Origin: Candidatus Moraniibacteriota bacterium
GTDB taxonomy: Bacteria; Patescibacteriota; Minisyncoccia; Moranbacterales; UBA1568
Direction of reading: 5' to 3'
DNA length: 64,000 nucleotides
Assembly: GCA_052035095.1 (NCBI GenBank)
Contig: JBPOHW010000003.1
Coordinates: 1,807 to 65,806 of the forward strand
The notes beneath the pieces are model-generated. The model searched no databases, was not told the origin of the DNA, and saw only the letters and a list, made by a program, of their open reading frames with translations. Below, in pieces: positions 643-20,928 of the stretch (positions within the stretch are counted from its first letter, which is position 1; each line of letters starts with the position of its first letter). Position numbers and translations under genes: made by a program.

Positions 643-674
643 CGAGTATTCGCGCGAAATTTTCTCTCAACTCT

Positions 675-1583: not shown

Positions 1584-1591
1584 AAAAACGT

Positions 1592-2254
1592 ATGTCATCT
1601 TTTTTTGAATTCCACTGCCACACGACTCCCTATTCGAAGGACGCCGGAGCAAAACTTGACGACATCATCAAAAGGTGTGAAAGGCGAAATATACGAAGCA
1701 TAGCGATTACCGATCACGACGAAATAGAAGGAGCGCTTCGATTAAAAAGTATAGCTCCTCCTTGGTTAAATGTCGTTCTTGGAGAAGAAATCAATACGTC
1801 TGCCGGAGAAATTATAGGCATATTCCTCAAAAAAAAGATTCCCCCCGGCCTTTCCCCGGAAGAAACACTTGCGGAGATAAAGAAGCAAGGAGGTATTTCC
1901 GTCGTCCCTCATCCATTCGACAGGTTTCGCTCAAAGGTTTTGAAAGCGTCCGAAATCAAAAAGAATGTTCATGCTATTGATATTATCGAAACTTTCAATG
2001 CGCGAAATCTATTGGAGGCAGATAATAAAAAGGCGGAGGAATTTGCGGAAATATACGAAAAACCCTGTATATGCGGGGGTGATGCTCACTTTATTGGAGA
2101 GTACGGGAGGACCGTCATCGCCAATATTGACTGTAGCGGACCGGAAACATTTCTCCGATCATTACATCGAGAAAATTTCAAACTTCGAAAATCTTCTCTT
2201 ACTTTCCATCTCCTGACAAAATACATGAAAATAGTCAGTTCTTTTCAAAAATAG
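1592..2254 (+). CDS. PHP-domain metal-dependent phosphoesterase
   Basis: N-terminal FEFHCHTTPYSKDAG...SIAITDHDEIEG is the PHP (polymerase/histidinol phosphatase) signature; gene sits 9 nt downstream of the UbiA gene. Confidence 0.7.
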   Translation: MSSFFEFHCHTTPYSKDAGAKLDDIIKRCERRNIRSIAITDHDEIEGALRLKSIAPPWLNVVLGEEINTSAGEIIGIFLKKKIPPGLSPEETLAEIKKQGGISVVPHPFDRFRSKVLKASEIKKNVHAIDIIETFNARNLLEADNKKAEEFAEIYEKPCICGGDAHFIGEYGRTVIANIDCSGPETFLRSLHRENFKLRKSSLTFHLLTKYMKIVSSFQK

Positions 2255-2256
2255 AT

Positions 2257-5199: not shown

Positions 5200-5241
5200 T
5201 CCACGCCTTGTACGTACAAAGGAACCCAGAAAGAAACTCAT

Positions 5242-6333: not shown

Positions 6334-6341
6334 CGTGCTCT

Positions 6342-7487
6342 ATGTCAAAGAAGAGAATACTCCACATCATTCAGTCACTCGGAAACGGCGGATGCGAAAA
6401 TATGCTGCTCCGCACCCTCCCCCTCCTTGCGGACGAATTCGAACACCACATCATCACCCTCCGCGAATTTGGCGAGCTCGCGCCACGATTTATTGAGAAA
6501 GGAATCTCCGTTACGACGATTCATCAAATCGGCTTTTTCGACATTTCGGGCTACCGGAGGCTCCTTCTGGAAACAAACCGGTTCAATCCCGACACCGTCA
6601 TCACGTACCTCTTCCATGCCGACATGATCGGACGATTTTTCTTGCAAAAGAAAATTTCTATCCCCATCATTCCCTTCCTTCGCACCACCTACAATCACCC
6701 GAGATATTTCATTGCGAGACTCTTCGAAAAAATTACTAAGCACCGTGTCAAACAGTACCTCGCCAATTCCGAAGCGGTCAAAGATTTCTACGTCAAAAAA
6801 ATCGGCGTCCAACCCGAGAAAATCACCGTCATCCCGAACGGCATCGACACCGAGTATTTCGACAGCATCCTCCCCAACCCAAATCTCCGCGCATCACCTG
6901 GTATCGCTCCTCACGACTTCGTCATTATCTGTGTCGCCAATTTTCATATCAACAAAGGTCACCGATACCTCCTCGAAGCCTTCGAGTCGCTCTTCCCGAA
7001 ATTCCGGCACGCAAAACTCCTCCTCATCGGCGATGGTTCCAAGCGAAAAAATCTTGAGCGACAAATCAACGCTTACCAAGCGAAACATTCCATTCTCTTC
7101 CTCGGACGCCGTACCGATGTCCCGCAACTCCTCAAGATTTCCGATTGTTTTGTTCTTCCCACACTCTTCGAAGGCATGAGTAATGCCCTGATTGAAGCGA
7201 TGGCCACCGGTCTCCCTGTTATCACAACCGATATTCCGGAAAATCGCGAGCTTATCGAACACGAAAAGACTGGCATTTTTGTCCAACCAAAAGATTCACA
7301 TGCGCTCACCAAGGCAATCGAACAACTCCTTGATAGTCCGGAAAAATGTGAAACCCTTGGAAAGAACGCTAAGTACGACATTCGAAGACGGTTTGACATA
7401 AATACTTCCATTTCAAAATTCAACAATTTTCTCAACTCTTTTATCGTACATAGAATGAAAAATGAGAAACCTTACAAAAAAAATTAA
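6342..7487 (+). CDS. Glycosyltransferase family 4 (GT-B)
   Basis: MSKKRILHIIQSLGNGG N-terminus and C-terminal FVLPTLFEGMSNALIEAMATGLPVITTD GT4 signature; start chosen at the internal ATG (ORF extends upstream to 6252 overlapping the previous gene). Confidence 0.8.
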   Translation: MSKKRILHIIQSLGNGGCENMLLRTLPLLADEFEHHIITLREFGELAPRFIEKGISVTTIHQIGFFDISGYRRLLLETNRFNPDTVITYLFHADMIGRFFLQKKISIPIIPFLRTTYNHPRYFIARLFEKITKHRVKQYLANSEAVKDFYVKKIGVQPEKITVIPNGIDTEYFDSILPNPNLRASPGIAPHDFVIICVANFHINKGHRYLLEAFESLFPKFRHAKLLLIGDGSKRKNLERQINAYQAKHSILFLGRRTDVPQLLKISDCFVLPTLFEGMSNALIEAMATGLPVITTDIPENRELIEHEKTGIFVQPKDSHALTKAIEQLLDSPEKCETLGKNAKYDIRRRFDINTSISKFNNFLNSFIVHRMKNEKPYKKN

Positions 7488-7506
7488 AATCAGTTTCTTT
7501 TTCCAT

Positions 7507-8565
7507 ATGAAAGACAAACCATCAATAAAGATAGTTCTCGAAAAAAGATCTGACGCAGTAGGTATCTACAATAATAAAATCTTATCTTACTTAAGAAAAA
7601 AACCAAACGTAGAATTTATTCTCCTTAATAATAAGCGTTTCAAAAAAAATATTCTCAATCGTATTTTTGAATTCTTCAACACACTAAAGATTATTTTTAC
7701 GATTGACCATAATGACATCGTTTTATTTACCGATCCCCTGCCATTCAATTTTTTGGCAAACTTATTTATAAAAAACAAAAAATTCGTCATTTTTTTTCAC
7801 TACGAACAAGATCCATCTTATTATAGATTTCTTCCTGCTATTTCTCTAAGCTCTGTCTTAAAAAAATCTGATGGAATCATATGCAGCTCTGCTTATTCAC
7901 TCTCCCAACTCCAACTCCTCAACATTGATCAAAGAAAATGCACCATCATCCATTGCGGAGTGGATCATAAAATATTTACTCCACCACTAACTAGAGAAAC
8001 TCTTTATCCTTTCGAGTATATTCTCAGCATAGGATCCGAAGAAAAGAGAAAAAACATGGAGAATATTCTTAAAACTCTCAAGATACTAAAAAGATATTTT
8101 CCTCACTTAAAACTCTTAAAAGTTGGGAAAGCAAGCTCAAGTAACCGAAAAAACACACTCTTTTGGGTAAAGAAGCTCAATCTAGACAATGATGTCGTTT
8201 TCACTGATTTCTTAGAAGAAAAGTCTCTACCAAAAATATATTCCAATTCAAGACTTCTTTTGTTTCCGTCCCTCCTCGAGGGCTTCGGTCTCCCGATTAT
8301 AGAAGCCATGGCATGTGGATGTCCGGTTGTAACATCCAATAGAAATCCCATGAAAGAGCTTGTTGGACCGGAACAACAGACCGTAGATCCACTCAATCCG
8401 AGTGACATCGCGGATACGTGTAAAAAAATTCTTTCGGATAAAAACTATCGAGATACCCTTATTCAAATCGGTATCAAGAGATCTGAAAAATTTGACTGGA
8501 AAAAAACAGCAAACGAAGTGTACTCATATTTAATAAAAAAGGATAAAAAGACAAAAGAACAATAA
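7507..8565 (+). CDS. Glycosyltransferase family 4 (GT-B)
   Basis: C-terminal LLLFPSLLEGFGLPIIEAMACGCPVVTSN motif; markedly AT-rich coding sequence; start ambiguous (7462 or 7507). Confidence 0.7.
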   Translation: MKDKPSIKIVLEKRSDAVGIYNNKILSYLRKKPNVEFILLNNKRFKKNILNRIFEFFNTLKIIFTIDHNDIVLFTDPLPFNFLANLFIKNKKFVIFFHYEQDPSYYRFLPAISLSSVLKKSDGIICSSAYSLSQLQLLNIDQRKCTIIHCGVDHKIFTPPLTRETLYPFEYILSIGSEEKRKNMENILKTLKILKRYFPHLKLLKVGKASSSNRKNTLFWVKKLNLDNDVVFTDFLEEKSLPKIYSNSRLLLFPSLLEGFGLPIIEAMACGCPVVTSNRNPMKELVGPEQQTVDPLNPSDIADTCKKILSDKNYRDTLIQIGIKRSEKFDWKKTANEVYSYLIKKDKKTKEQ

Positions 8566-8573
8566 ACGCCTTT

Positions 8574-9311
8574 TCACTTCTTGGCTACAGCCAAAAGACT
8601 TGAAGTGTATATATCTTGCTTATCGTACCCGAGAATTTGAATAAAAATTTTGAAGAAAAAAAGCGTAATTTTTCTCAATATATTCAACCAAAAATTCCCA
8701 ACTCCATAAAAGTTCTTCATCTCCACCCTTTTGAATCCCGCAACAACAAGTACTTGTCGCAAACTCAAGTTCGTAAAACCGATCTCATGAGTTATGTCTC
8801 CGTATCTGCCCGCGGTAGAATTAAAATAAGCAGCGCAATTTGGAACAACAATAATAATCGTGCCACCATCAACCAATCTATTTCTTACCTCTTCAAGAAA
8901 TCCAAAAAGATTTTCTTTTTTAATATGTTCCAATACATGTGACAAATATATGACATCAAACTTTTCTTTTTCGGAAAGAAGGTATTTATAAATATCAGCC
9001 TGAACAAACTTGTAAGATCTGAATAATTTTTTACACACGACTATTTCTTCTGTTGATATATCAACACCAGTAACATTCTTGTATCCGTGTGCTTGTAGAA
9101 AAAAAAGAAAACTTCCATAGCCACATCCCAGATCCAAAATAGCCCTTTCTTTGCTGATTTTTGTTTTAAACAGACGTCCCAGGTTATATTCCAACGGAAT
9201 TTTATTTTTCTTAAGCAGTGTCACTACCTGATTTTCATCGGAAAAATCCGTTTTTTCACAATTCGAGTAATGATTTGTAAGGTAGTTGTCGAATATTTTT
9301 CTATTGTCCAT
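8574..9311 (-). CDS. Class I SAM-dependent methyltransferase
   Basis: ILDLGCGYGSFLFFL...FDVIYLSHVLEHI...GGTIIIVVPN motifs. Confidence 0.7.
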   Translation of the reverse strand: MDNRKIFDNYLTNHYSNCEKTDFSDENQVVTLLKKNKIPLEYNLGRLFKTKISKERAILDLGCGYGSFLFFLQAHGYKNVTGVDISTEEIVVCKKLFRSYKFVQADIYKYLLSEKEKFDVIYLSHVLEHIKKENLFGFLEEVRNRLVDGGTIIIVVPNCAAYFNSTAGRYGDITHEIGFTNLSLRQVLVVAGFKRVEMKNFYGVGNFWLNILRKITLFFFKIFIQILGYDKQDIYTSSLLAVAKK

Positions 9312-10158
9312 CAGCGTTTGTTATCGGCTTATTTCCTTTCACATAGATTTTATTCAGACCAAAAAATAAATATACCAAGTAGAGAAATTGCTCGAGAACA
9401 CGCCTGTACCCTCGAGCATTAAACCGAATGTGATATTTTATAAGAGCAATGAGATTTATTTTGAACATCAAATATACCTGTCGTTTTAGCATAAAAACAC
9501 TCACAGATCCGGCATGGAGTCTTTTTTTGTACAATACTTCCGGCATATTTTCAAAGCGAACGCCCTGTGAAAACCACCGGAACCAGAGCTCGACATCTTC
9601 AGCGTGGTCATAGTTCGAGTCGTAATATCCATAATCGGCAAAGAGACTTCGTTTCATCATGCACGTGGGATTGTGTACTGGCGGCTTGCCATCATGAATG
9701 TCACTTGAATCCGCAGAAACCACGGCTTTACATTGTTCAGGCGAAGCATTGAGGAATAGACAATAAGAAGATCCCAGAATGTCCGTATCGGGGTTTTTGC
9801 GAAAATACCTCACTTGCTTTTCAAATCTGTCAGGTGGGCAAATATCATCAGAGTCGACTATTACTATAAAATTGCCTTTAGCCACTTTAATAGCCTTATT
9901 TCTCGCTTCAGATTGTCCCAAATTTACAGCATTTTTTATGTATATAATCCTTTTGTCTTTTTTAGCGAATTCTTGAATGATACTTTCACTATTATCATAA
10001 GAACCATCATTGATAATGATAAACTCAAATCGAGCATATGTTTGCGACAAAACACTCTCGATTGATTCATAAAGGTATTTCCCATTATTATAAGTGGCCA
10101 TCACGACGGAAAGTAACGGATCCGATGTCGCTTTTTCTTTATTATTCTCGGAATTCAT
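9301..10158 (-). CDS. Glycosyltransferase family 2 (GT-A)
   Basis: LLSVVMATYNNGKYLYESIESVLSQTY...FEFIIINDGSYD...DSDD motifs. Confidence 0.8.
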   Translation of the reverse strand: MNSENNKEKATSDPLLSVVMATYNNGKYLYESIESVLSQTYARFEFIIINDGSYDNSESIIQEFAKKDKRIIYIKNAVNLGQSEARNKAIKVAKGNFIVIVDSDDICPPDRFEKQVRYFRKNPDTDILGSSYCLFLNASPEQCKAVVSADSSDIHDGKPPVHNPTCMMKRSLFADYGYYDSNYDHAEDVELWFRWFSQGVRFENMPEVLYKKRLHAGSVSVFMLKRQVYLMFKINLIALIKYHIRFNARGYRRVLEQFLYLVYLFFGLNKIYVKGNKPITNADGQ

Positions 10159-10166
10159 AACTTGTT

Positions 10167-11144
10167 TTATTTTTCCGAAATCCTTTTCATGTCCGCATCA
10201 ACCATCATGGAAACCAATTCATCGAATTTAACTCTCGGTTTCCATCCAAGTATTTTTTTTGCTTTATTGTTCGCTCCATGTAGCGAAAACAACTCAGCCG
10301 GCCTCTTAAATCGCGGATCCAATTTCACGTATCGCTTCCAATCGCGAATACCAACATGCTTAAAAGCAAGCTCGAGGAAATCTCGAATCGAGTGGGTTTC
10401 TCCGGTTGACACTATATAGTTATCCGGCTTACTTTGCTGGAGCATGAGCCACATAGCCTCAACATAATCACCTGCAAATCCCCAATCGCGCTTACTCTCA
10501 AGATTCCCCAATCGTATTTCTTTTGCCAATCCCAACTTTATTCTTGCCACCCCATCGGTTATTTTCCGCGTCACAAACTCCATTCCCCGAATGGGAGATT
10601 CGTGATTGAATAATATACCGTTTGTGCAATACATACCATAACTCTCTTTGAAGTTAACCGTCATCCAATAGGCATACAATTTGGAAATAGCATAGGGGCT
10701 TCTCGGATGAAATGGCGTTTCCTCCGTTTGTAAACCATCGCTATGGCTATTGCCAAACATCTCGCTAGTTGACGCTTGGTAAAATTTCGTGGTCGGCGAA
10801 AAATATTTGATGGCATTTAACAAATGAAGGACGCCCAAGGCGTTAATTTCGGTGGTAATTTTTGATTGATCCCATGATACTCCAACGAAAGATTGTGCTG
10901 CCAAATTGTAGACCTCATCCGGATGAAACGTTTTAATAAGATTCATGATCGACGCTTCATCCGTCATATCTCCGGATATAAAAGCAATCTTTTCCGTTAC
11001 ACCCAGATAATCGGTATTGCAAAAATTCGGGTTAGCATAACGCCGTATGAGCCCGAAAACCTCATAATCCTTCTCCAAAAGCAACTTGGCGAGATATGGA
11101 CCATCCTGACCCAAAATACCAGTTATAAGCGCTGTTTTTTTCAT
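10167..11144 (-). CDS. gmd: GDP-mannose 4,6-dehydratase
   Basis: MKKTALITGILGQDGPYLAKLLLEKDYEVFGLIRR..., short-chain dehydrogenase fold with the Gmd-typical N-terminus and NHESPIRG motif; ORF extends to 11183 but MKKTALITG is the likely start. Confidence 0.85.
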   Translation of the reverse strand: MKKTALITGILGQDGPYLAKLLLEKDYEVFGLIRRYANPNFCNTDYLGVTEKIAFISGDMTDEASIMNLIKTFHPDEVYNLAAQSFVGVSWDQSKITTEINALGVLHLLNAIKYFSPTTKFYQASTSEMFGNSHSDGLQTEETPFHPRSPYAISKLYAYWMTVNFKESYGMYCTNGILFNHESPIRGMEFVTRKITDGVARIKLGLAKEIRLGNLESKRDWGFAGDYVEAMWLMLQQSKPDNYIVSTGETHSIRDFLELAFKHVGIRDWKRYVKLDPRFKRPAELFSLHGANNKAKKILGWKPRVKFDELVSMMVDADMKRISEK

Positions 11145-11186
11145 ATTCCTGAAAAAATTATAAATTCTTTTTTTGCAATCCACTTC

Positions 11187-12326
11187 TTATAGACCACTTT
11201 CTATATATACCCGGAAAACACACTCTTCGAGAGCAAACACCGTATGGGGAATATTCGCGGCGACCCATGCCGACTGACCATCATTCAGGTGAAACGTTTC
11301 CTTTTCCGATATCAACATGAGCGAACCCTTACTAATATATATATGCTTCATTGGCAGTTTTTTGATTCGAGCGACATCAGGGCAGTACTGATACTTACTG
11401 CTGTGACCTTTGGCAAGAATGTACTCCTTTCCTTCAGTCGATTTCGGAGCAGCGCTTCGTCCGACACGGAAATATTTTGGATACAAACCCCGTTTTATCA
11501 AAGAAGAATTGCTCAATCTATTATCATCGTCCCAGTTTGCAAACAGCTCTTCTTTAAGTCCACCCACAACGAAAGGGAGCAATTCCGAATCACAGTCAAA
11601 AAGTGACTTCTCCAAATTAAACGGGGTTGCGGGAGAATAGATAACAAATCGAATGCCTAAACTTGAAACTATTTTATTTAGAAAAAACCAAAAAGCTCTG
11701 TTTCTCGGATACATGAAAAAACAATTTTCCATAAACACTTGCAAAAGAAACGGCACTTTTACGAGAATTTTCCTTTCAATCTCCAAAAGTTTCTGAAAAT
11801 ACCGTTTCGTGCAAATGCCTGCCAATGAATACGGATAGAAGTGATTACTATTTTTCTTCAAAAAACTGGAATTTTTCCCGTCAAACTGAAAAAAGAAGAA
11901 GTGTTTCGAATAATCAGGGTACAGTCCCTCGGCGCTCCCAACGCTTAAACCGACATTGAAAAAAGAATACGTAAAACAATCGATTTTCGAATCCATCATA
12001 TCTTGAATGACGTCCCTGAAATGATCGAGAGATTTCAAAAGAAAATGATCCTCAAGAAAAACATAAACATACTCATATTTTGAATTCTCAAACATCTTTC
12101 TTGTGCTTTTCGCCCAATCATTCTCATTAAGACCAGAGAAAAAAATGCAGTTTCTTTCAACATTGTCAAAAGTCTCTTGAATATATTTCAGGACATCTCC
12201 GCGGTATTTTCCCCGAATATTGATGAGCCAGTTATCGGAAATGCCATACACCCGAGAGAAGGTTTCTTTGAACAACTCGAGCTTCGATTTCGAATGTATG
12301 AAAACATTACAGAGGGCGGTTATCAT
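11187..12326 (-). CDS. Hypothetical protein with C-terminal cupin-like domain (possible sugar isomerase/epimerase)
   Basis: C-terminal ...FHLNDGQSAWVAANIPHTVFALEECVFRVYIESGL resembles a cupin beta-barrel; N-terminal 250 aa unrecognised; sits between gmd and the C-methyltransferase. Confidence 0.35.
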   Translation of the reverse strand: MITALCNVFIHSKSKLELFKETFSRVYGISDNWLINIRGKYRGDVLKYIQETFDNVERNCIFFSGLNENDWAKSTRKMFENSKYEYVYVFLEDHFLLKSLDHFRDVIQDMMDSKIDCFTYSFFNVGLSVGSAEGLYPDYSKHFFFFQFDGKNSSFLKKNSNHFYPYSLAGICTKRYFQKLLEIERKILVKVPFLLQVFMENCFFMYPRNRAFWFFLNKIVSSLGIRFVIYSPATPFNLEKSLFDCDSELLPFVVGGLKEELFANWDDDNRLSNSSLIKRGLYPKYFRVGRSAAPKSTEGKEYILAKGHSSKYQYCPDVARIKKLPMKHIYISKGSLMLISEKETFHLNDGQSAWVAANIPHTVFALEECVFRVYIESGL

Positions 12327-12346
12327 ACGGGAAACTATTTAATTAG

Positions 12347-13495
12347 CTATTCGAAAACAACTATCTTCGAATTGATTTTCTTGAGCTGTTTAAATATCTC
12401 ATCTCGGTAAATGCCAACCTTGAGGACAACGCCGACCACACCCTTCCCCTCCAACACTTCCGGACTTTGAACCATAAAGGGCGTCCCGTAGAGGCGCTTC
12501 CCTTGTTTGAGCGAAGAATTGTCCAACAGGGAAACTATTTTTTGTTTATTCAAACCAAATTCGAAAAGATACTGGGCAAAAATGTGAGCGCCAAAAACAT
12601 ATACCTCGCCATCAAAACCGGCAATTTTCTCATTCAAATCCTTCACCATATTCTGATGGTACCGAATAAAATCATCGAATATTTTTTTGTACTCATGATA
12701 TTGATTCTCAAAGATCGCAGCTCCCGATTGTTTAGCTTTCTCCGCGACATAGAAAATACTGTGATCCTTGTAAAAATACTTATCCTTTATGACAAACCCA
12801 TACTTAACAAAGAGATAATCAACAAAATAGTCCGTCAAGAACATCGTGTGCTCGAAATTTATGGCGTTCGTATACTTTCTCTCGAGCCACAGTTTCAAGT
12901 TTGGATAGGCGCACACAATCTTTCCTCCGACAGGAAGAAATTTCGCTATCGAAGAAACAAACGCGTTCGGATCATAGGCGTGTTCCATCACCTGCGAGAA
13001 AACTACCGTATCTATATTTCCCTCATACTCGAAATTTTCGTCAAAAAAAGCGCGGGCAATCTTAATCCGATCACTTCCCAAGTGAAGTGGATTTGGTTCA
13101 ACAAGTGTCCACGATGTCCCTTCAGTACTGCCAATAAAAATATCAGCGAGTTTCCCGGCGCCACCCCCAATTTCAAGAATATCTTTCGATGGTTGCCTTT
13201 GTACATACTCGGCAAAATCATGATAGTACTCTTCCCATGTTGGACCCGTGCCATCTACATGCTGTTCTTGATAAAGAATATCGAGTGGAATAAGTTTTTC
13301 GAGCTGAATGACGCCGGATTCCGGACATATTGCCCAGCTCATATCGGCTTTGACATCTTTTTCAGAGCTATGTTCCACGCACCCGAAAAACACCGGAAAG
13401 TCTTTAAAAGTGTGGAGATGCTTGAGATTTTCTTTTCCGGTGATAACACTTTTTTTTCTAAAAACATATTCCATACGCTTTTTTGGCTTGATCAT
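12347..13495 (-). CDS. NDP-hexose C-methyltransferase-like enzyme (zinc-ribbon + SAM methyltransferase + C-methyltransferase C-terminal domain architecture)
   Basis: ILEIGGGAGKLADIF SAM motif, TylCIII/TcaB9-like domain order with an N-terminal putative zinc-binding region and a long C-terminal domain. Confidence 0.6.
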   Translation of the reverse strand: MIKPKKRMEYVFRKKSVITGKENLKHLHTFKDFPVFFGCVEHSSEKDVKADMSWAICPESGVIQLEKLIPLDILYQEQHVDGTGPTWEEYYHDFAEYVQRQPSKDILEIGGGAGKLADIFIGSTEGTSWTLVEPNPLHLGSDRIKIARAFFDENFEYEGNIDTVVFSQVMEHAYDPNAFVSSIAKFLPVGGKIVCAYPNLKLWLERKYTNAINFEHTMFLTDYFVDYLFVKYGFVIKDKYFYKDHSIFYVAEKAKQSGAAIFENQYHEYKKIFDDFIRYHQNMVKDLNEKIAGFDGEVYVFGAHIFAQYLFEFGLNKQKIVSLLDNSSLKQGKRLYGTPFMVQSPEVLEGKGVVGVVLKVGIYRDEIFKQLKKINSKIVVFE

Positions 13496-14484
13496 CGTTT
13501 TATAAAACTCTTCACAAAAGCTTCAATAATTCCTTCGAACATTGAAATTAAGCGAATTTTTACAATATCTTTCGAATGCACATTATTTTTTCTGATATGC
13601 CTCTGTCCAAAAACGACGAGTCGACTCCCTGCTTGACGATCAAAATGACTCAAATATTCGTCACTTGAAACAATTTTCACATCAGTTTTTCCACATGAAC
13701 GCAAACGCCTTACAAATTCCCGAGTCGTCCATCCTCCATATGGCGCTGAATGAGACTCGAAATTGGTAATAAAGTATCCATACTTTGACGGAACTATCAC
13801 CGAATTAAAATAAGCATCAAGCAAAGAACCTCTCATTTCCGAAAATGCCCCGTTTGAAATCACAAGACCACCACTCCCCTGTCTAGGCGCCAAGGAGTTA
13901 ACACTTTCAAAGCGAGCCGAGTACCCAAAATGCAATAAAAAGCGTTTGATTATTCCATGAGAAGAGGGGAGGTCGTAAATATGCCATTTCTTGCCAAGAT
14001 CTGAATTAAAAAGAGTTACCGCTATATCATTGAAAATTTTACACTCACCACCGTACCCCGCGCCAATATCATGTATTTCTGTCTCACCGTTCAATATATT
14101 CTTTCCAAAAAGAGATAAGCAGTTGAAAGCATTGTTTGCATATCGAATAGTGGTCGGGGAAAGACTGTACCCTGCTTCATAAGGAGAATGGGCGTTAAAG
14201 TCAATCATATGTAAAGGCAACCCTACGGTATCGGAAGCTTGAATCAAAGGTAACGCCTTAAGAAAATCGGCTTCTTTTAATAAGCGTTTCAAATTCCATA
14301 ACCCGCACGATCGCGGAGATCCCTCGATAACTCGTCGAAACGGCTTCGAAGAACGAAAGATGCGATAAAACTCATCATTATTTGCTGCATCAGCACATGC
14401 CCGAACCCAATCGGATTCTTTTGCAGATACAGCATCATTCATATCAATTCGACAAATACTCGACCTCAAGTTATTCGTTTCCAT
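13492..14484 (-). CDS. Hypothetical protein, possible SAM-dependent (sugar O-) methyltransferase
   Basis: EIHDIGAGYGGECKIFNDI resembles SAM-binding motif I; otherwise unrecognised; start overlaps the upstream gene by 4 nt. Confidence 0.35.
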   Translation of the reverse strand: METNNLRSSICRIDMNDAVSAKESDWVRACADAANNDEFYRIFRSSKPFRRVIEGSPRSCGLWNLKRLLKEADFLKALPLIQASDTVGLPLHMIDFNAHSPYEAGYSLSPTTIRYANNAFNCLSLFGKNILNGETEIHDIGAGYGGECKIFNDIAVTLFNSDLGKKWHIYDLPSSHGIIKRFLLHFGYSARFESVNSLAPRQGSGGLVISNGAFSEMRGSLLDAYFNSVIVPSKYGYFITNFESHSAPYGGWTTREFVRRLRSCGKTDVKIVSSDEYLSHFDRQAGSRLVVFGQRHIRKNNVHSKDIVKIRLISMFEGIIEAFVKSFIKR

Positions 14485-14530
14485 ACGGTTAAAACAAAGT
14501 GGAACAGAAAATGCAAATATGCGATTTATC

Positions 14531-15061
14531 TCATTTTTTCTTCCATGCTCCCGAGCCTTCTTTCAAGACAAGTGAGTAGATATCGAACGGTTCGTTGAAA
14601 AACTTTTCCAGTATATGCAAACACGCCTCAGCAACCGCCCCATCCCCACCTCGCAGGTTCGTGATAAAATCCGCCTTCTCTTTCGTTGCATAAAAAGCAT
14701 TGGCTGGAGCAATACTATAAGCAACGTGCTTAAAAACAAGTGGATCGAATATGCCGTCACCCATATAAATCGTTTCCGCCGGATCGAACCGATCGCGAAT
14801 CCACTCTATCCGCTCAAAAGTACTCACGAGGTCCAGTGGAAGCTTCATATCGTCGGCTATTCGTCGCTTCGTAATGGCAAAGCCGTTTTTATCACCGGTA
14901 ACCGCATGAATCATGAGTTTTCCCCGAAGAAGAGAAAGGGCGTCGTTATCTTCCGGACCGAACTTCTTCATGACTTTTCCATCGACGGTATAATAAAACG
15001 TACCGTCCGTGAAAACACCATCGACATCAAGAATGAAATTTTTTATTGTTTTCTTTTTCAT
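14531..15061 (-). CDS. HAD-IIIA phosphatase, KdsC-like (sugar-phosphate phosphatase)
   Basis: ILDVDGVFTDG...MGDGIFDPL...GGDGAVAEACLHIL matches the 3-deoxy-manno-octulosonate-8-phosphatase family. Confidence 0.7.
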   Translation of the reverse strand: MKKKTIKNFILDVDGVFTDGTFYYTVDGKVMKKFGPEDNDALSLLRGKLMIHAVTGDKNGFAITKRRIADDMKLPLDLVSTFERIEWIRDRFDPAETIYMGDGIFDPLVFKHVAYSIAPANAFYATKEKADFITNLRGGDGAVAEACLHILEKFFNEPFDIYSLVLKEGSGAWKKK

Positions 15062-15071
15062 ATCAACTGTT

Positions 15072-16646
15072 TTATTTTTCATTGAGCGCACGCCACAAGT
15101 TCAGCTTCCCGAAATAAAAGAGAAACAGATCGAACGGATGATGATGAAGTGGAGACATATTGAGCCAAATGATAGCCGTCAGAAGTTTCACCTTCCTTAC
15201 ATCATAGCCATTTTTCTCCAAAAATCCAAAGAGCACTTTTTGACATTGAACCAAATTTTCCTTGCGTAAAATATCACAAACAATCCTCTCCTTCCCAACA
15301 TCAATGACAAATAGATCATTGTTTACGATCTCATGATTCACTGTCAAATTGTGATTTAACTTCGAAAGATCGTAATACAAATCCCCCGATTTTAGAAGTC
15401 CGCCGAAATTTTGTCGCCAGTCCAAAAGCACATATCCAGATTTATTTTTCAAAAGATTATCAAGAATGAAATCGCCATGAAACCCGCTCTGCTTCGTATC
15501 ACATAGCCAATCAAAGTCAATCACTTCAAGCATTTTTTTAAAAGAAGGTATTTTTTCATCATTAATAACATTCTCCGCATCCTTCACTTTGCGCGAATTG
15601 AGAAACTTTTCAACTCGCTCCACTGTTTTTGTACGATAAAAATCAAAACAAATTTTCTTGAATTCCCGATCCGAAATTTCCCGATTCGGCTTCCAGAGAT
15701 TTTTCTGTGACCAATTCAGAAATCTCCCAAAGTCTATCGGGGTGGCGACTTTTGAATACAGTTTTCCGGTCGCATATTTATAACGATAAAAATTTTTGGT
15801 CGACCCTTGTATTTCCGGCACAAGACCGCGCAAAATTTTGGCCCTCGATACTCGTTGCGCCACCATCTTTTCATCATTGAAAAATTTAACCACAAAACTG
15901 TCAAAAATAAATATTGATTCATCTGATTTATCAAGAATTCGAAATGAGTCCTCAATTTCTTCCCGAGCCCTGTTTAAACTTTCGACATTACCAATATCGT
16001 ACCACTTTTCAAATTCAACCACTCCAAACTCGCTTCCGTCTCCTATCATTTTGCTGATTACCTCGACATCATTAAGTCCGCCATTATTCGGATCTTGTTC
16101 ATACAACTCCCTCAAGTTTTTCCAAAAGAGTTTATATTCTTGCACTCCTATCAAACCGATATGCAAAAAATCCGGATCCATCATTCCTTTGTCATACATT
16201 TGTTGCACTTTTCCGTCGACGACATCAAATGAAGCGTAGTGAGAAGATCCCTCACCCTGAAATCCTCCTATCCAATTTGACTTCGGCAAAGGAATTTTTC
16301 TCCCAGCAACAATCGTGTCACAAGCATGATAAATAAATGGGCATTGTAATTGGGAAGATGCTTGCAACATGGAATATCCAAGACTTGTTCCCGGGCCCTC
16401 ATATTTGTCCACTTCGACAAATTTGAAATTTCTTTCCGGATAAACCAGTTTCAAAAAATCACACACTTGATCACCAAAATAACCCACAGTTATAACAAAC
16501 TCCGTATTCTTCGGATACTGCTCAATGATATAAGAAATAGCCGGCTTCTTTCCGACTTTCACAAGAGACTTGTTCGTATACTTGGTTATTTCTCCCAATC
16601 GTGATCCTGTTCCGGACGTGGTAAGAAGGACCTTACAGGCAGCCAT
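15072..16646 (-). CDS. Bifunctional sugar-phosphate nucleotidyltransferase (N-terminal) / APH-ChoK-family kinase (C-terminal)
   Basis: N-terminus VLLTTSGTGSRLGEITKYTNKSLVKVG is a nucleotidyltransferase G-loop; C-terminus HGDFILDNLL...LLDWRQNFGG is the Brenner kinase motif; LicC/LicA-like order. Confidence 0.6.
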   Translation of the reverse strand: MAACKVLLTTSGTGSRLGEITKYTNKSLVKVGKKPAISYIIEQYPKNTEFVITVGYFGDQVCDFLKLVYPERNFKFVEVDKYEGPGTSLGYSMLQASSQLQCPFIYHACDTIVAGRKIPLPKSNWIGGFQGEGSSHYASFDVVDGKVQQMYDKGMMDPDFLHIGLIGVQEYKLFWKNLRELYEQDPNNGGLNDVEVISKMIGDGSEFGVVEFEKWYDIGNVESLNRAREEIEDSFRILDKSDESIFIFDSFVVKFFNDEKMVAQRVSRAKILRGLVPEIQGSTKNFYRYKYATGKLYSKVATPIDFGRFLNWSQKNLWKPNREISDREFKKICFDFYRTKTVERVEKFLNSRKVKDAENVINDEKIPSFKKMLEVIDFDWLCDTKQSGFHGDFILDNLLKNKSGYVLLDWRQNFGGLLKSGDLYYDLSKLNHNLTVNHEIVNNDLFVIDVGKERIVCDILRKENLVQCQKVLFGFLEKNGYDVRKVKLLTAIIWLNMSPLHHHPFDLFLFYFGKLNLWRALNEK

Positions 16647-16649
16647 AAT

Positions 16650-17366
16650 TTAGACAGCTCTCATTTTTTGAATAACCGAAACTGACCGATCAATGTTTCC
16701 TCGAAACTCTCTGATTTTTTCATCAAGCGGTTTTTCTTTTTTGTAGATAACCGACGTGCCGCATACCAACACAGTTGCCCCGGCAGCTATCATGAGCGGA
16801 CCGCTTTCCGGAGTCACCCCGCCGTCAATTTCGATTTCGATATCACTCTTTCCCAATGCATCCAGCTTCTTTCGGAGATCCATAATCTTCTGCACGGAAA
16901 AAGGAACTAGCTTGTGTCCGACAATTCCCGGATTGATAGCCATGAGCATTACAACGTCGATGTCATCCAATATGTAGTCAAGCACAGAGAGTGGAGTCGC
17001 CAGGTTAAGCGCCACCCCTGGTTTTACTCCCTCGTTTTTTATAAGAGAAACCGCGCGATGGAGATGATTGGTAGCCTCCGCATGTACAACAACATACGTT
17101 GCCCCAGCCTTTGCAAACTCCGTGACATACTTCTCTGGAGAACGCGTCATCATGTGCACATCAATAGGAAGACTTGTCACTGATCGAATATCCCGGAGCA
17201 GTTCAGGGTAAAGACCGTATCGAGGAACAAAGTCCCCATCCATGACATCAAAATGAATCGAATCAATACCACCCTTTTCAAGAAGACGAATTTCCTCCGC
17301 AAAAGTCATAGCATTCCCACAGATGAATGACGCTGATAACTTGTAGCTTCTTGTCATGGCTTCCAT
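16650..17366 (-). CDS. rpe: Ribulose-phosphate 3-epimerase family
   Basis: KLSASFICGN...IHFDVMDGDFVP...MAINPGIVG...IDGGV motifs. Confidence 0.8.
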   Translation of the reverse strand: MEAMTRSYKLSASFICGNAMTFAEEIRLLEKGGIDSIHFDVMDGDFVPRYGLYPELLRDIRSVTSLPIDVHMMTRSPEKYVTEFAKAGATYVVVHAEATNHLHRAVSLIKNEGVKPGVALNLATPLSVLDYILDDIDVVMLMAINPGIVGHKLVPFSVQKIMDLRKKLDALGKSDIEIEIDGGVTPESGPLMIAAGATVLVCGTSVIYKKEKPLDEKIREFRGNIDRSVSVIQKMRAV

Positions 17367-17372
17367 AGTTTT

Positions 17373-17900
17373 TTATTCAAGGTTGGAGTGTCGAGCCCAC
17401 ATTGTCTCATGAGTTTCCTCGAGAAGATCCATGAGCACCAATACAAGCGCGTCATAAAAAATAAAAAGACACTGTTCGTTCAGCGTCGTCATTGGTTGAA
17501 CGGAAGAAAATCCTTCCACTGGCTTGGTCTTTGAGGGAGCCTTGATTTCAACTATCGTATCAGCAAGTTTTCCCATCCTCGATTCCGGATTTCCGGTCAC
17601 AAGCGCGACTCTTGCCCCATTTTTCTTGGCAATTTCAACAAGATCATAAATGGTTTGGGTCTCACCGGATCCGGAACTCACCAAGAAGAGATCTCCAGAA
17701 CCGATAGACGGAACCACCGAATCGCCAAGCGTAAACGCATCCCGCCCAAGATGTTTCAATCGCATGCCAAATGATCGCGTCGCCATCCCTACTCTCCCCG
17801 CTCCGCACACCACAATCTTTTTCGCTCGTATAATGTCCGCAATGAGACCAATTACTTGTTCCTCCTGCAGTGACTCAAGCACTACTTTCATTTCACTCAT
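17373..17900 (-). CDS. hxlB: 6-phospho-3-hexuloisomerase (SIS domain)
   Basis: VVCGAGRVGMATRSFGMRL...LVSSGSGETQ...VQPMTTLNEQCLFIFYDALVLVLM...HSNLE closely parallels HxlB/PHI rather than GmhA. Confidence 0.65.
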   Translation of the reverse strand: MSEMKVVLESLQEEQVIGLIADIIRAKKIVVCGAGRVGMATRSFGMRLKHLGRDAFTLGDSVVPSIGSGDLFLVSSGSGETQTIYDLVEIAKKNGARVALVTGNPESRMGKLADTIVEIKAPSKTKPVEGFSSVQPMTTLNEQCLFIFYDALVLVLMDLLEETHETMWARHSNLE

Positions 17901-17982
17901 TATCACCTGTATTCTTCTCTTTATCATAGTAATTACGGCATTACAACAAGAAAAATTCATCCAGAAAACATCCTCTACTAGA

Positions 17983-19329
17983 TTATACTAACACTTTTCT
18001 TTCACTGTCAAAAATAGACATCCTTGCAAGAAGCCATCGTTCGACAAATATCGAGACAGCCGTATTGGCAATAAACATATACACAATAGCAAGAATACTC
18101 ACATTTCCGAAAAAAATAAGCAGTCCATATCCGGCTATGTGTGTAAAATTAATGATATTGGAGATGAGAACATATTTTTTGTAGAGTTTCTTTGAAAGCG
18201 CCATAATCGTCGACCAATAAACCGTGAGAATAATCTGAGCCGTCGCCAACAATCCAAAACTCGCAATGTATCTCATATCGTATCCGTATCGACTGCCAAA
18301 GAGTAACATCACTATATATATGATAGAACTCAATACAAAAAAGACGGGAACAGCTCCAAAAAGAAACAATCGGTCGAGCTTCCGAACGAAATCTTTGTCA
18401 GAAACCTTTGATATAAAGGGAAAATAGACATTCACAAAGATCTGTGTCGCTTGCGCGACAAGATTGGTCGAAGCGGTGAAATACGCCATATAAACTCCCA
18501 GTTCCTGTATGCTCAAATATTTTACAATAATAAATTTATCAAGAGAGCTAAACACTATCCCAAGAGCGGAGCTAAGAATAATAATCCAAGCGTATGAAAG
18601 TCCTTTTTTCAAAATATTGAAACGAAACTTTGAAAAATATCGTCGGAAAAACCACACCCCACAGAGAATAAAACCGATATACCCTCCGCAAAGAACAAAA
18701 AAATAAGACACGTAAGAAACTTTTTTCAAAAAAAAGAAGGCTACAAAAAACAAACAAATGATCAAAAAAACCTCCGCCATTCTCGAAAAAAATTGCTCTC
18801 GGAAAAAAGAGAGGCCTCGAAAAAATACGTCCGAAACCGATCGCGCTATCACGATAACGGAATACGTGGCAGCTACCAAAAAGAATATCAAATCAACATG
18901 GGAACGATTACTGATAAATGGAGCAATCATCAAAAAAAATACAATGACGGCAGTAGTTGAAAAACCAACGAAAACAGCTATCGTTGTCATACTTTCCGAT
19001 CGAGCTTCTCCTGTCTCATCTTTTGAGAGAAGTTGAAGCCCCGCAGTATCCATGCCAAAAAGCGCAAGGAGTATAAGTATTTGACTTACCGCAAGCACCA
19101 ATCCGTAAAGACCATACTGTTCTGGCCCCATAAAGCGCCCTCCAACCACATTTACAAAAAGCATAACGAGAGACGCTATAATACCTCCAAAAAACGACCA
19201 TGATAAATAGCCGAGAAACTTTCGCATCTCTCCACTCATCGGGTGTCCAAAAAACCGGAGATGGACAACCTCGATCATTCGAAAGAATTTCTTCTCCGCC
19301 ACCCCGAAAGACATAAGGCGATCAATCAA
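17983..19329 (-). CDS. Wzx-like polysaccharide/oligosaccharide flippase (MOP superfamily)
   Basis: 448 aa, about 12-14 TM helices, architecture of polysaccharide biosynthesis (Wzx) proteins; next to glycosyltransferases. Confidence 0.6.
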   Translation of the reverse strand: MIDRLMSFGVAEKKFFRMIEVVHLRFFGHPMSGEMRKFLGYLSWSFFGGIIASLVMLFVNVVGGRFMGPEQYGLYGLVLAVSQILILLALFGMDTAGLQLLSKDETGEARSESMTTIAVFVGFSTTAVIVFFLMIAPFISNRSHVDLIFFLVAATYSVIVIARSVSDVFFRGLSFFREQFFSRMAEVFLIICLFFVAFFFLKKVSYVSYFFVLCGGYIGFILCGVWFFRRYFSKFRFNILKKGLSYAWIIILSSALGIVFSSLDKFIIVKYLSIQELGVYMAYFTASTNLVAQATQIFVNVYFPFISKVSDKDFVRKLDRLFLFGAVPVFFVLSSIIYIVMLLFGSRYGYDMRYIASFGLLATAQIILTVYWSTIMALSKKLYKKYVLISNIINFTHIAGYGLLIFFGNVSILAIVYMFIANTAVSIFVERWLLARMSIFDSERKVLV

Positions 19330-19476
19330 AAATTTTTTTCAACTTTCCAGTGAAACCACAAAATAGGCTTTCGTAATAATTCGAGCCCCAAGCTTACCAT
19401 GAGTAAGATAAAATTGTCAGCAGTGGTGCTTTTGAGGAAAAGTGCCTTTTTGAAGCATTTGTAGTATACTCTCTCT

Positions 19477-20928
19477 ATGCGATTTTCTCAAAAGATACTC
19501 CATCACCACGCCTTCCTCATTTCTCTGCTCCTTGCCACCTTCTTCCTCAAAGGCGTCTTTCTGGCAACGCTCTTCCCGATGTTTACCGGGCAAGACGAGG
19601 CGCGACACTATAATTCCGCCCAATTCATCAATGAACCAACAGACAAAATATGGGAAAAAAGCCCAAAGAAAGCAGAAGTAAATCGCGATACTTTTGCCGA
19701 CTATAATTTCTCCGAAGAAATTCTCTTTGCCGGCACGGCGGCGGGTATCGACGATATTCGGAGTGGACTCTACAATACGACTGATTTTTCCAATACCTCT
19801 CTCGGAAAAAACGAGGGTGAAATCCTCGAACAAAAATGGCGTCCCTACAATCTCTTCGAATATCCCGACGCGGTTCGCGGGAGCCTGTACCACACGATTA
19901 CCGGAAAAATCGAGGGGGCGCTTGCGGATCAAAACATTCTTGTTCGGTTCTATTCTATTCGAATTTTTTCCGTACTTCTTGGTACCTTCGCCGTTCTTCT
20001 CGCTTTTCTCATCGCGCGAACAATCGGATTTTCTCCCTACATCAGCACGCTTTTCGCGGCGCTCGTCGCCTTTCAGCCGAAGTTTTCGATGTATCTGACC
20101 AATATCAACTACGACGCCTTTCTCATCCCCCTCTTTTTCCTCTTTACATGGGGCGGAGTTTTAAGCCTTCGTGACGGGATCAACTGGAAGAATGTTTCCA
20201 TTATGATAACCGCGATCGCGCTCGGCATTCTCACCAAGGGAACCGCAGTTATTCTCTTTGTCGCCTTCTTGGGACTCATCGGGTTTCATCTTTTTAGGAA
20301 AGCGAAAAATCCCAAAAAACTTTTCATTGCCGCTATGATATTCGTCGGCATCTTTCTCATTGCCAATGCCTTCCTCGAAACAAAATATTCTCTCCGAGGA
20401 CTCTTCCCTCTCAAGGGATCCGCGACCGAAACACTGCTCTCGCTCGGAGAATATCTCGATACAAGCCTCACGCCGGGACGCTTCGCGCTCTCCTCGCGTA
20501 CCTATTGGGGCGCCTTGGGGTGGAATGACAGCGTCATCATAAATCATCTCACCAACATACTCTGGCCGATACAGGCTATTGCCACTCTCGGTATCATCCT
20601 CTTTCTCTTTACTCGAAACAAACCGGATTTCTTGCCGGACAAAACTCAAATCGCCTTTCTCATCAGCATGATTGTCGCCCTTCAACTCGGCATTCGTCTC
20701 GCGGACTGGAACGTCTTCGCGTCAACCGGATCGCTTGATCTCGGCACGCCGGGGCGTTACTTCCTCCCCAATCTCGCAACGCACCTCATCCTCGTCTTTG
20801 TTGGCTTCGGTATGCTCCTTGGCAAACGAGAGTACTTCAAAAATATCCTCAAGGGCGGCGTTATCCTGATGTTTTTCTTTTCACTGTACCTCACCTTCAA
20901 TGTCATCCTCCCGCGCTTCTATCTATGA
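19477..20928 (+). CDS. ArnT/PMT-like GT-C membrane glycosyltransferase (polyprenyl-phosphate-sugar dependent)
   Basis: First periplasmic loop FTGQDEARHYNSAQF parallels the ArnT DEARYAEISREM motif; about 11 TM helices. Confidence 0.55.
   Translation: MRFSQKILHHHAFLISLLLATFFLKGVFLATLFPMFTGQDEARHYNSAQFINEPTDKIWEKSPKKAEVNRDTFADYNFSEEILFAGTAAGIDDIRSGLYNTTDFSNTSLGKNEGEILEQKWRPYNLFEYPDAVRGSLYHTITGKIEGALADQNILVRFYSIRIFSVLLGTFAVLLAFLIARTIGFSPYISTLFAALVAFQPKFSMYLTNINYDAFLIPLFFLFTWGGVLSLRDGINWKNVSIMITAIALGILTKGTAVILFVAFLGLIGFHLFRKAKNPKKLFIAAMIFVGIFLIANAFLETKYSLRGLFPLKGSATETLLSLGEYLDTSLTPGRFALSSRTYWGALGWNDSVIINHLTNILWPIQAIATLGIILFLFTRNKPDFLPDKTQIAFLISMIVALQLGIRLADWNVFASTGSLDLGTPGRYFLPNLATHLILVFVGFGMLLGKREYFKNILKGGVILMFFFSLYLTFNVILPRFYL

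Follow-up and report, generated by a model that had tools for sequence, protein, structure and literature searches.

A conserved cassette built around a LicC-like nucleotidyltransferase–kinase fusion in Candidatus Moraniibacteriota and other bacteria: a probable de novo route to a nucleotide-activated sugar

The gene at 15072..16646 of a 64,000-nucleotide stretch of a Candidatus Moraniibacteriota genome (contig JBPOHW010000003.1; the whole stretch is referred to here as the window) codes for a protein of 524 residues that, from its motifs and predicted folds, is shown to be a putative bifunctional enzyme, in which a LicC-like nucleotidyltransferase is joined to a kinase of the APH/choline-kinase fold, both with intact catalytic motifs. 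We show that this fusion is the hub of a conserved cassette, consisting in addition of a phosphatase and of one of two mutually exclusive two-enzyme feeder modules, and found inside Wzx-type polysaccharide loci. The cassette very probably serves the de novo synthesis of a nucleoside diphosphate (NDP)-sugar. A fuller statement, for and against which we see the case as evenly balanced, is that it builds an NDP-activated rare hexose of the tagato/talo series de novo from fructose-6-phosphate (F6P) for a surface polysaccharide. A preliminary description of this DNA, drawn from its sequence alone, had recognized the nucleotidyltransferase–kinase architecture and quoted a motif for each half; the open reading frame (ORF), both motifs and both folds are borne out by the present analysis.

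The fusion is read on the minus strand, as are all the genes of its operon. Its N-terminal nucleotidyltransferase domain (residues 1 to about 232; 15951..16646) was recognized by Pfam, by profile search of the PDB and by Foldseek, and its C-terminal kinase domain (residues 235-524; 15072..15944) by an AlphaFold2 (AF2) model of the domain, Foldseek and motifs. Positions 16593-16628 translate to LLTTSGTGSRLG, which holds the G-loop SGTGSRLG of the N-domain; G12, G14, L17, G18, K26, D110 and D217 are invariant or nearly so in the alignment, and the motif W215-x-D217-x-G219 is invariant across the relatives. The domain exceeds the gathering threshold of Pfam NTP_transferase (PF00483), but weakly (25 vs 21.2 bits, summed over weak stretches). 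With a profile made from 27 sequences, the PDB search returned LicC (1jyk, E 2.3e-8), followed by inositol-1-phosphate cytidylyltransferase (IPCT) and RfbF, and in the AF2 model of the full-length protein (pLDDT 88.3) the N-domain superimposes on LicC 1jyk with a Foldseek TM score of 0.82, at an identity of about 21%. The resemblance to LicC noted in the preliminary description is thus upheld for this domain. MurU is also among its structural matches. The likeness to LicC, IPCT and RfbF hints at CTP as the nucleotide used.

Foldseek with the full-length model gave matches for the N-domain only. The C-domain of the window protein has no Pfam match (APH, PF01636; Choline_kinase, PF01633) at E<0.01 and nothing in NCBIfam, and phmmer and hmmsearch against the PDB brought up only maltokinase, at E 2.1. 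A model of the C-domain by itself (pLDDT 93.6) was matched by Foldseek to APH(2'')-IIa, choline/ethanolamine kinases, macrolide phosphotransferases and fructosamine-3-kinase (FN3K), with a probability of 1.0, E values down to 4e-6 and TM scores of about 0.5. Moreover, the Campylobacter concisus orthologue (40% identical) passes the cut-off of Pfam APH (27.7 > 23.2), and many homologues of the fusion carry a precomputed PF01636 match. Positions 15414-15479 translate to HGDFILDNLLKNKSGYVLLDWR, the motif pair HGDFILDNLL...LLDWR, made up of the Brenner motif H390-G-D392-x4-N397 (15456-15479) and the Mg-binding-type D409-W-R411 (15414-15422). The pair, as HGD....N and DWR, is found in all 73 full-length relatives, and K254 (of the ATP-binding type), H390, D392, N397 and D409 are invariant in the alignments; the kinase half therefore retains its catalytic residues. 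The invariant basic residues of the C-lobe, R411, K429, H432, H438, R461 and H501, might bind a sugar phosphate.

The fusion is widespread. Full-length homologues number >2,200 with the window protein as query and 2,756 with that of C. concisus, and at least 767 clusters at 50% identity (E<=1e-30) carry it; because of these numbers the fusion is neither a product of chance nor an artefact of assembly. The hosts are bacteria of the candidate phyla radiation (CPR), Campylobacterota, Gammaproteobacteria and Bacteroidota, and homologues at 82-86% identity suggest a CPR/Moranbacteria-like origin for the window. None of the relatives bears a functional name, the labels being hypothetical protein, phosphotransferase and NDP-sugar pyrophosphorylase. 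Searches of models, the PDB and the literature found no curated model, solved structure or paper on the fusion or the cassette, and literature searches on the gene combination, on tagatose or talose in bacterial glycans, and on NDP-talose, -tagatose, -altrose or -allose found nothing relevant.

A pattern scan of one genome per species yielded 198 relatives, from which 80 loci were kept. The composition of the cassette was established by ORF clustering and tblastn in those 49 loci where each flank extended for at least 4 kb. A gene for a KdsC-like phosphatase lies beside the fusion in 45 of the 49. A pair of genes coding for a 6-phospho-3-hexuloisomerase (PHI)-like protein and an Rpe-like epimerase, as in the window, adjoins the fusion in 26 loci (route A), and a GatZ-like gene stands in place of this pair in 22, accompanied in 19 of these 22 by a cupin of the phosphomannose isomerase (PMI) type (route B). 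The two kinds of feeder never share a locus (Fisher p = 4.6e-13), and the PHI-like gene always accompanies the Rpe-like gene, never the GatZ-like or cupin genes. The feeders found in the window are thus replaced elsewhere by the GatZ-like enzyme and the cupin, and therefore the cassette is better explained by de novo synthesis from F6P than by salvage. A C-methyltransferase gene is present in 32 of the 49 loci, usually directly next to the fusion. The gene order KdsC-like, GatZ-like, cupin and fusion is seen in C. concisus, Marinomonas colpomeniae, Ca. Ruthia magnifica, Aliiglaciecola lipolytica, a metagenome-assembled genome of the Spirochaetales and two metagenome contigs, and all of these cassettes are within polysaccharide loci with a Wzx or MsbA/PglK-like exporter and glycosyltransferases. 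Wzx genes flank the cassette in the Ruthia, Spirochaetales and other loci, and GT2-like and GT90-like glycosyltransferases come directly after the fusion in many. In the C. concisus locus (L072), about 10800-13500 is N-masked just downstream of the C-methyltransferase, and the rest of the cassette is unreadable there.

Covalent fusions confirm, in the manner of a Rosetta stone, that the feeder enzymes are functionally tied to the nucleotidyltransferase–kinase: a GatZ-like domain precedes it in P0277 and follows it in P0327, and a cupin precedes it in P0300. In P0087 the partner in front is a TylF-type O-methyltransferase. In a neighbour-joining tree of the fusions the clade from outside the CPR is entirely of route B, whereas routes A and B are intermixed within the CPR clade, where the nearest relative of a route-B fusion is a route-A fusion in 7 of 9 cases. 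No alignment column separates the fusions of the two routes at 80% purity. Because of this intermixing and the lack of a separating column, the fusion would be expected to see the same substrate with either feeder. The feeder, then, appears to have undergone non-orthologous displacement with the substrate of the fusion unchanged; a promiscuous fusion is the alternative.

In six loci the tblastn spans of the fusion gene were about 720 bp too long, and an intein or intron was suspected; this was ruled out, as the same six loci hold an extra stand-alone nucleotidyltransferase paralogue beside the fusion. Such a paralogue adjoins the fusion in 16 loci (among them L002, L014, L018, L020, L025, L026, L033, L038, L040, L044 and L047); it has about 240 residues, is 44-52% identical to the N-domain of the fusion, lacks the kinase domain and is absent from the window. 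It may signal a second nucleotide or a second sugar phosphate. In P0355 (724 residues) a GIY-YIG/NUMOD3 homing-endonuclease ORF lies in frame ahead of a member of the fusion family, which could reflect a mobile element inserted upstream or read-through by the gene caller.

The route A feeder of the window consists of a PHI/HxlB-type SIS protein (17373..17960) and a divergent Rpe-family epimerase (16650..17366). The first exceeds the cut-off of the equivalog-domain model TIGR03127 (187.3 bits > 160) and reaches only about 18-24 bits with GmhA models, which points to PHI activity. The second scores just below the cut-off of TIGR01163 (208.9 vs 212.6 bits), passes that of the subfamily NF004076 (179 > 165) and gains 160 bits on the AlsE model; in the PDB it matches Rpe with 175 bits and AlsE (3ct7) with 125 bits. 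The metal and catalytic residues H38, D40, H71 and D181 are invariant in the alignment of its subfamily (A5), whereas the substrate loops are altered, and invariantly so: they read VPRYG, NPGIVGHK and VCGTS, in place of what we take to be the canonical Rpe loops VPNLT, NPGFGGQ and VAGSA. The Cys and the GTS of this subfamily presumably resemble AlsE.

The route B feeder consists of a GatZ-like, or class-II-aldolase-like, enzyme of 330-390 residues and a cupin of 110-120 residues. A profile of the former matches Escherichia coli GatZ (2fiq, E 2e-7) and a Sinorhizobium homologue, and in the alignment RDHGGP falls on D87-H88 of GatZ and GTEE on E171. Along with H257, these are the proposed catalytic/metal residues of GatZ, and GatZ and KbaZ have been shown to turn F6P into tagatose-6-phosphate (PMC11907403). 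The motifs RDH.GP and [EQ]HN.D occur in 27 of 27 sequences and GT[ED]E in 26 of 27. With the Pfam family PF08013 (GatZ_KbaZ-like; cut-off 26.7), the copy in locus L024 (36.3) and P0327 (32.5) score above and the C. concisus copy (23.1) below. We therefore regard the GatZ-like feeder as a putative member, very divergent and with its catalytic residues retained, of the GatZ/KbaZ-like family. The cupin passes Pfam MannoseP_isomer, one member passing Lyx_isomer as well, and the type-II PMI metal motif S-x-Q-Y-H-x-x-K-x-E is found in all 22 cupins. Heptose and pentose substrates for the feeders were weighed on paper and fit less well than a hexose, because of the equivalog-level score of the PHI-like protein and the chemistry of the GatZ family.

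The phosphatase gene (14531..15091, an ORF of 186 codons) follows the fusion. Comparison of orthologues places its likely start at the ATG at 15061, 10 nt past the stop codon of the fusion, so that the preliminary description was right in putting a KdsC-type phosphatase immediately downstream. The protein is a HAD phosphatase of the C0/IIIA type with the motifs DVDGV and GDGxxD, which are kept in 55 of 59 sequences, and it matches KdsC/YrbI crystal structures in the PDB with E values of 1e-11 to 1e-15. It falls below the KdsC cut-offs (NF007019, 66.3 vs 208 bits; TIGR01670, 65.6 vs 106.95 bits) and scores 60 bits with the model for the phosphatase of KDN-9-phosphate. The fold family is clear, and by its scores the enzyme is predicted to be KdsC-like but not KdsC.

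The following scheme brings these enzymes together. In the first step, the feeder would invert C4 of F6P. In route B, the GatZ-like enzyme would turn F6P directly into tagatose-6-phosphate by retro-aldol chemistry. In route A, the PHI would shift the carbonyl to C3, giving a 3-hexulose-6-phosphate, the Rpe-like enzyme would epimerize the carbon beside this carbonyl, and the PHI would then return it. A PHI suits route A because inversion of C4 by proton chemistry requires a carbonyl at C3; seen from carbonyl and phosphate, the target carbon of 3-hexulose-6-phosphate is placed just like C3 in ribulose-5-phosphate, the natural substrate of Rpe. From the chemistry of GatZ on one side and the logic of the PHI and Rpe-like pair on the other, two independent lines, we infer that both routes converge on the C4-epimer series of fructose. 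In the second step, an aldose-ketose isomerization by the cupin or the SIS enzyme would probably lead to a talo-configured aldose phosphate; route B is best read as going from F6P to tagatose-6-phosphate and on to this aldose phosphate. In the third step, the phosphatase and the kinase domain would between them shift the phosphate away from C6 to the position at which the sugar is activated. Of the two possible orders, we slightly prefer the one in which the sugar is first dephosphorylated and then, in free form, phosphorylated at its anomeric position, because the sugar kinases of the APH fold use free sugars (to our knowledge, all those characterized do so) and because the substrates of KdsC-type enzymes are monophosphates, which they hydrolyse immediately ahead of nucleotide activation. 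The action of the phosphatase would make an unfavourable epimerization irreversible. A heptose-type order, via a 1,6-bisphosphate, would be equally allowed. In the fourth step, the N-domain would join the sugar phosphate to an NTP, and the resulting NDP-hexose would be C-methylated in about two-thirds of the loci and passed to the glycosyltransferases of the locus.

The C-methyltransferase of the window (12347..13495) matches Pfam Methyltransf_23 and Methyltransf_14 and is a homologue of the TcaB9/MtmC/TylC3-type sugar 3-C-methyltransferases. Its profile matches MtmC (4rv9) in the PDB with E 2.4e-15 over positions 8-362 of 376, as well as TcaB9 (E 7e-10) and KijD1; the dyad E215-H216 is invariant, and the Zn-binding Cys4 is lost in most members. 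With the Methyltransf_14 domain and the dyad both present, it can be assigned as a predicted full-length homologue of the NDP-hexose 3-C-methyltransferases. Enzymes of the TcaB9 type methylate the carbon adjoining the 4-keto group of an NDP-sugar. The window's homologue of GDP-mannose 4,6-dehydratase, or Gmd, was considered as a general source of such a group and rejected, as Gmd-like genes occur in only about 10 of the 80 loci and the short-chain dehydrogenases/reductases (SDRs) are heterogeneous, and as an inversion of C4 ahead of a 4,6-dehydratase would be futile. A protein of 379 residues with a C-terminal cupin (11187..12326; weak Cupin_2 match only) is coded for in 14 of the 49 loci. It accompanies the C-methyltransferase whichever feeder is present, and it may be the oxidoreductase that is missing, or else an epimerase or the transferase.

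Several observations weigh against the scheme of an NDP-aldose of the tagato/talo series. The methyltransferase is the first: an NDP-aldose would offer a TcaB9-type enzyme no carbonyl beside the carbon to be methylated, and no oxidoreductase is conserved with the cassette, the SDRs of the loci being heterogeneous; none occurs within 8 kb in 10 of 27 loci with the C-methyltransferase, nor within 10 kb in Aliiglaciecola. The fusion itself is the second, since the nearest structural relatives of its N-domain, LicC and IPCT, act on non-anomeric phosphate esters, and its kinase domain, as judged from the model (TM about 0.5), seems to be without a close characterized relative. Route A is the third. 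We know of no precedent for the C4-epimerization of 3-hexulose-6-phosphate by an Rpe-like enzyme, and route A has no PMI-type isomerase; if both routes are to have identical end products, one of three options must hold. The PHI-like SIS enzyme could walk the carbonyl from C3 to C1, including a 2,1-shift; or the cupin could carry out a 2,3-shift, the common product being 3-hexulose-6-phosphate; or the common product could be tagatose-6-phosphate, the cupin having another role. The sugar's identity, the nucleotide, the step order and the kinase's regiochemistry are, throughout this scheme, predictions.

Some of these points would be met if the fusion worked in the manner of LicA and LicC on a ketose. 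The phosphatase would then free a ketohexose, the kinase would phosphorylate a non-anomeric hydroxyl (for example O1 of tagatose), and the CDP-ketose, its carbonyl free, would be methylated at C3 and transferred as a sugar phosphate, as in a teichoic-acid-like decoration, and not as a glycosyl residue. The kinship of the N-domain to users of non-anomeric phosphates agrees with this, as does the fact that FN3K, whose target is a ketose hydroxyl, ranks with the best structural matches of the kinase domain (TMq 0.51-0.55). A ketose would also supply the TcaB9-type enzyme with a carbonyl without a conserved oxidoreductase, and we reason that C3 of an NDP-1-ketose is as far from the nucleotide as C3 of the dTDP-4-keto sugars. 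LicD- or TagF-type phosphotransferases are found in the Ruthia and Aliiglaciecola loci, the LicD match in Ruthia being weak; these genes, however, adjoin TagD-like cytidylyltransferases of their own and are absent from the window. Moreover, the glycosyltransferases that so often follow the fusion directly are of the GT2-like and GT90-like kinds, and an aldose product is implied by the PMI-type cupin, which forms an integral part of route B and is even found fused to the enzyme. We thus consider the LicA/LicC-like route improbable, if well short of negligible. Tentatively, and with rather more confidence than we give to that route, although still with more doubt than belief, one may picture a widespread NDP tagato/talo-hexose pathway, not described before, in CPR bacteria, Campylobacterota and marine Gammaproteobacteria, in which the product is 3-C-methylated in most loci and is maybe a 3-hexulose, the PHI and a repurposed Rpe replace GatZ, and the methyltransferase uses the ketose's own carbonyl instead of a dehydratase-made 4-keto group.

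Inversion at C4 may also be questioned. The Rpe-like enzyme could be an F6P 3-epimerase of the AlsE type and the SIS protein an aldose-ketose isomerase, which would lead to allose- or altrose-6-phosphate; the GatZ-like enzyme and the cupin would then reach the same sugar by epimerization at C3, or the two routes would make different sugars for a promiscuous fusion. Such a one-to-one exchange, epimerase for epimerase and isomerase for isomerase, is the simplest bookkeeping, and the Rpe-like protein does gain 160 bits with the AlsE model and 125 bits with 3ct7, a Cys and a GTS motif being presumably in common with AlsE. It is nevertheless nearer to Rpe than to AlsE, and the PHI-like protein passes an equivalog cut-off as a 2,3-isomerase. 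The chemistry known for the GatZ family is C4 epimerization (PMC11907403), a 3-epimerase ahead of a C3-methyltransferase would be pointless, and no residue of the fusion tracks the type of feeder. An allose or altrose product is for these reasons somewhat less probable again than the LicA/LicC-like route, and C4 inversion of F6P is the reading we retain.

The preliminary description had stopped short of the feeder genes at 16650-17960 and had favoured the activation of a sugar salvaged in free form, or else a CDP-linked decoration such as phosphocholine. Neither proposal fares well now that the cassette is seen to carry its own PHI-like and Rpe-like enzymes. Salvage of the kind known from AmgK/MurU, NahK or FKP would have the kinase phosphorylate an imported free sugar at C1 and the N-domain activate the product, and the phosphatase and isomerases would be unrelated. 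It is true that the anomeric kinases of the APH fold (NahK, AmgK and maltokinase) use free sugars and that MurU is among the structural matches. However, the strict co-occurrence and covalent fusions with the feeder enzymes, and the co-occurrence with the phosphatase, speak against salvage; the cassette has no conserved transporter or glycosidase partner, and the comparison with AmgK/MurU gave 22.7 bits with the MurU model NF045761, against a cut-off of 250. We hold salvage to be very unlikely. Activation of phosphocholine or phosphoethanolamine to decorate a glycan, which the domain order of LicC-LicA fusions, the rank of LicC as best structural match of the N-domain and the choline/ethanolamine kinases among the kinase matches would favour, can practically be dismissed, given that Pfam and NCBIfam scans of the window found no LicB, LicD or choline-related gene, that the conserved partners are all sugar-phosphate enzymes, that identity to LicC is only about 21%, and that the window protein has no match to Choline_kinase.

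In its logic the module follows the NDP-heptose pathways and in its appearance LicCA, and it is a member of neither family. In HldE/GmhB and HddA/GmhB/HddC, a kinase, a phosphatase and a nucleotidyltransferase can stand in for a mutase, and the analogy to these triads drawn in the preliminary description is upheld. There too (GmhA/HddA/GmhB/HddC; HldE/GmhB), a ketose phosphate is isomerized by a SIS-family enzyme that heads the pathway, before the kinase, HAD phosphatase and nucleotidyltransferase replace the mutase; in HldE, the kinase and nucleotidyltransferase are fused although their activities are not consecutive, and the phosphatase is separate. The products are GDP-D-glycero-alpha-D-manno-heptose (HddA/HddC route) and ADP-heptose (HldE route). 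The enzymes of the cassette are nonetheless different, and identity with the HddA/HddC type, also raised earlier, does not hold: the kinase has the APH/choline-kinase fold and theirs is of the GHMP or ribokinase type, the phosphatase is KdsC-like and not GmhB, the SIS protein is of the PHI type (187 bits against 18-24 for GmhA), there is an extra epimerase step, and a hexose made from F6P is predicted as substrate instead of sedoheptulose-7-phosphate. With LicC/LicA, the CDP-choline system, the fusion shares a nucleotidyltransferase followed by an APH-fold kinase, and LicC is the closest solved structure of the N-domain, but the partners here are epimerases, isomerases and a phosphatase, with no choline context.

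The route B feeder keeps the D-H, E and H residues of GatZ and is followed by a HAD phosphatase, the same order as in the phosphorylation-epimerization-dephosphorylation route engineered for tagatose production (PMC11907403). It differs from GatZ/KbaZ in being very divergent (E 2e-7; Pfam 23-36 bits) and anabolic rather than catabolic, and in having a cupin isomerase and nucleotide activation coupled to it; the window has the PHI and Rpe-like enzymes instead. AmgK/MurU, NahK, maltokinase and methylthioribose (MTR) kinase resemble the fusion in that an APH-fold kinase acts on a sugar hydroxyl, nucleotidyl transfer following, but they serve the salvage of free sugars and are usually separate proteins; NCBIfam and PDB profile searches detected no sequence-level relation of the fusion to APH-fold sugar kinases beyond the fold. 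The Kdo pathway (KdsD, KdsA, KdsC, KdsB) likewise has a SIS isomerase, and a KdsC-type phosphatase that takes off the terminal phosphate just before nucleotide activation, whereas the cassette lacks a KdsA-type condensing enzyme and KdsB, has a kinase, and has a phosphatase that reaches 66 of the 208 bits needed with a KdsC model. As to TylC3, TcaB9, MtmC and KijD1, the neighbouring methyltransferase is their full-length homologue with the E-H dyad, and a Gmd homologue is likewise encoded in the window, in parallel with the route of Gmd and C-methyltransferase proposed for GDP-virenose (PMC3539893); unlike those 3-C-methyltransferase systems, most cassettes are without a 4,6-dehydratase or other oxidoreductase.

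Nucleotide-sugar synthesis by relocation of a phosphate is known; what is new here is the different set of folds and the presence of two interchangeable feeders. The CPR bacteria, which are little understood, the human-associated C. concisus and a clam symbiont all have the fusion in loci for surface polysaccharides. Its product, once worked out, would give bacterial glycobiology a new activated sugar, and probably one that is new as a branched sugar, and would account for a recurrent gene set now called hypothetical protein or phosphotransferase. It would also give a natural example of the phosphorylate-epimerize-dephosphorylate route that industry engineers for tagatose. Possibly, a new two-enzyme way to invert C4 of F6P might be revealed; route A, if true, is a non-homologous replacement of a GatZ-type retro-aldol epimerase. 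Because the two feeder modules are interchangeable, the hypothesis lends itself to a direct test with F6P and four or five soluble enzymes.

In the window, the fusion gene sits in a tightly packed operon within a low-GC island (positions 1-20000; GC 0.36-0.44 vs about 0.52 elsewhere). The operon is headed by a gene for a Wzx-type flippase (17983..19329; Pfam Polysacc_synt, 74.9 bits). Beyond the phosphatase gene lies one for a putative sugar O-methyltransferase (13492..14484), weakly NanM-like (TIGR04371, E 2e-4) and found in 4 of the 80 loci, in close relatives only. The Gmd homologue (10167..11183) scores 405 bits with TIGR01472, against a cut-off of 415, and is probably a separate branch outside the core cassette. 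A GT2 glycosyltransferase (9301-10158) and another methyltransferase (8574-9311) complete this part of the operon, and elsewhere in the island are genes for GT4 enzymes and further methyltransferases, along with a UbiA/PHP pair and one GT-C enzyme. The island is dense in glycan genes, with at least five methyltransferases, which suggests a heavily methylated surface glycan and, possibly, horizontal acquisition.

Some of the loci elsewhere have features of their own. In A. lipolytica (L083, 15601-20255) the cassette lies beside genes for a Maf protein of 1179 residues (flagellin glycosyltransferase type), a flagellin and FleQ, and in some Gammaproteobacteria the sugar of the cassette may end up on flagellin. 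The TagD-like small cytidylyltransferases of Ruthia (L081, 14635-15718) and Aliiglaciecola (L083, 14030-15591), each beside a LicD-like or TagF-like phosphotransferase, are separate modules for CDP-alcohol decoration. An RfbH/E1-type 3-dehydrase (687 bits, cut-off 423) is coded for in 13 of the 80 loci (L008, L023, L027, L036, L039, L040, L044, L045, L049, L054, L061, L066 and L074), with both feeder types and often with two small conserved partners, which suggests that the chemistry of these same glycans includes 3,6-dideoxy- or CDP-sugars. In the window itself, a UbiA-family prenyltransferase and, directly after it, a PHP-domain phosphatase (675-2254, plus strand) resemble the decaprenyl-phosphoribose synthase and phosphatase that make lipid-linked pentose donors, and a donor of this kind could serve the GT-C (PMT_2) enzyme encoded at 19477-20928.

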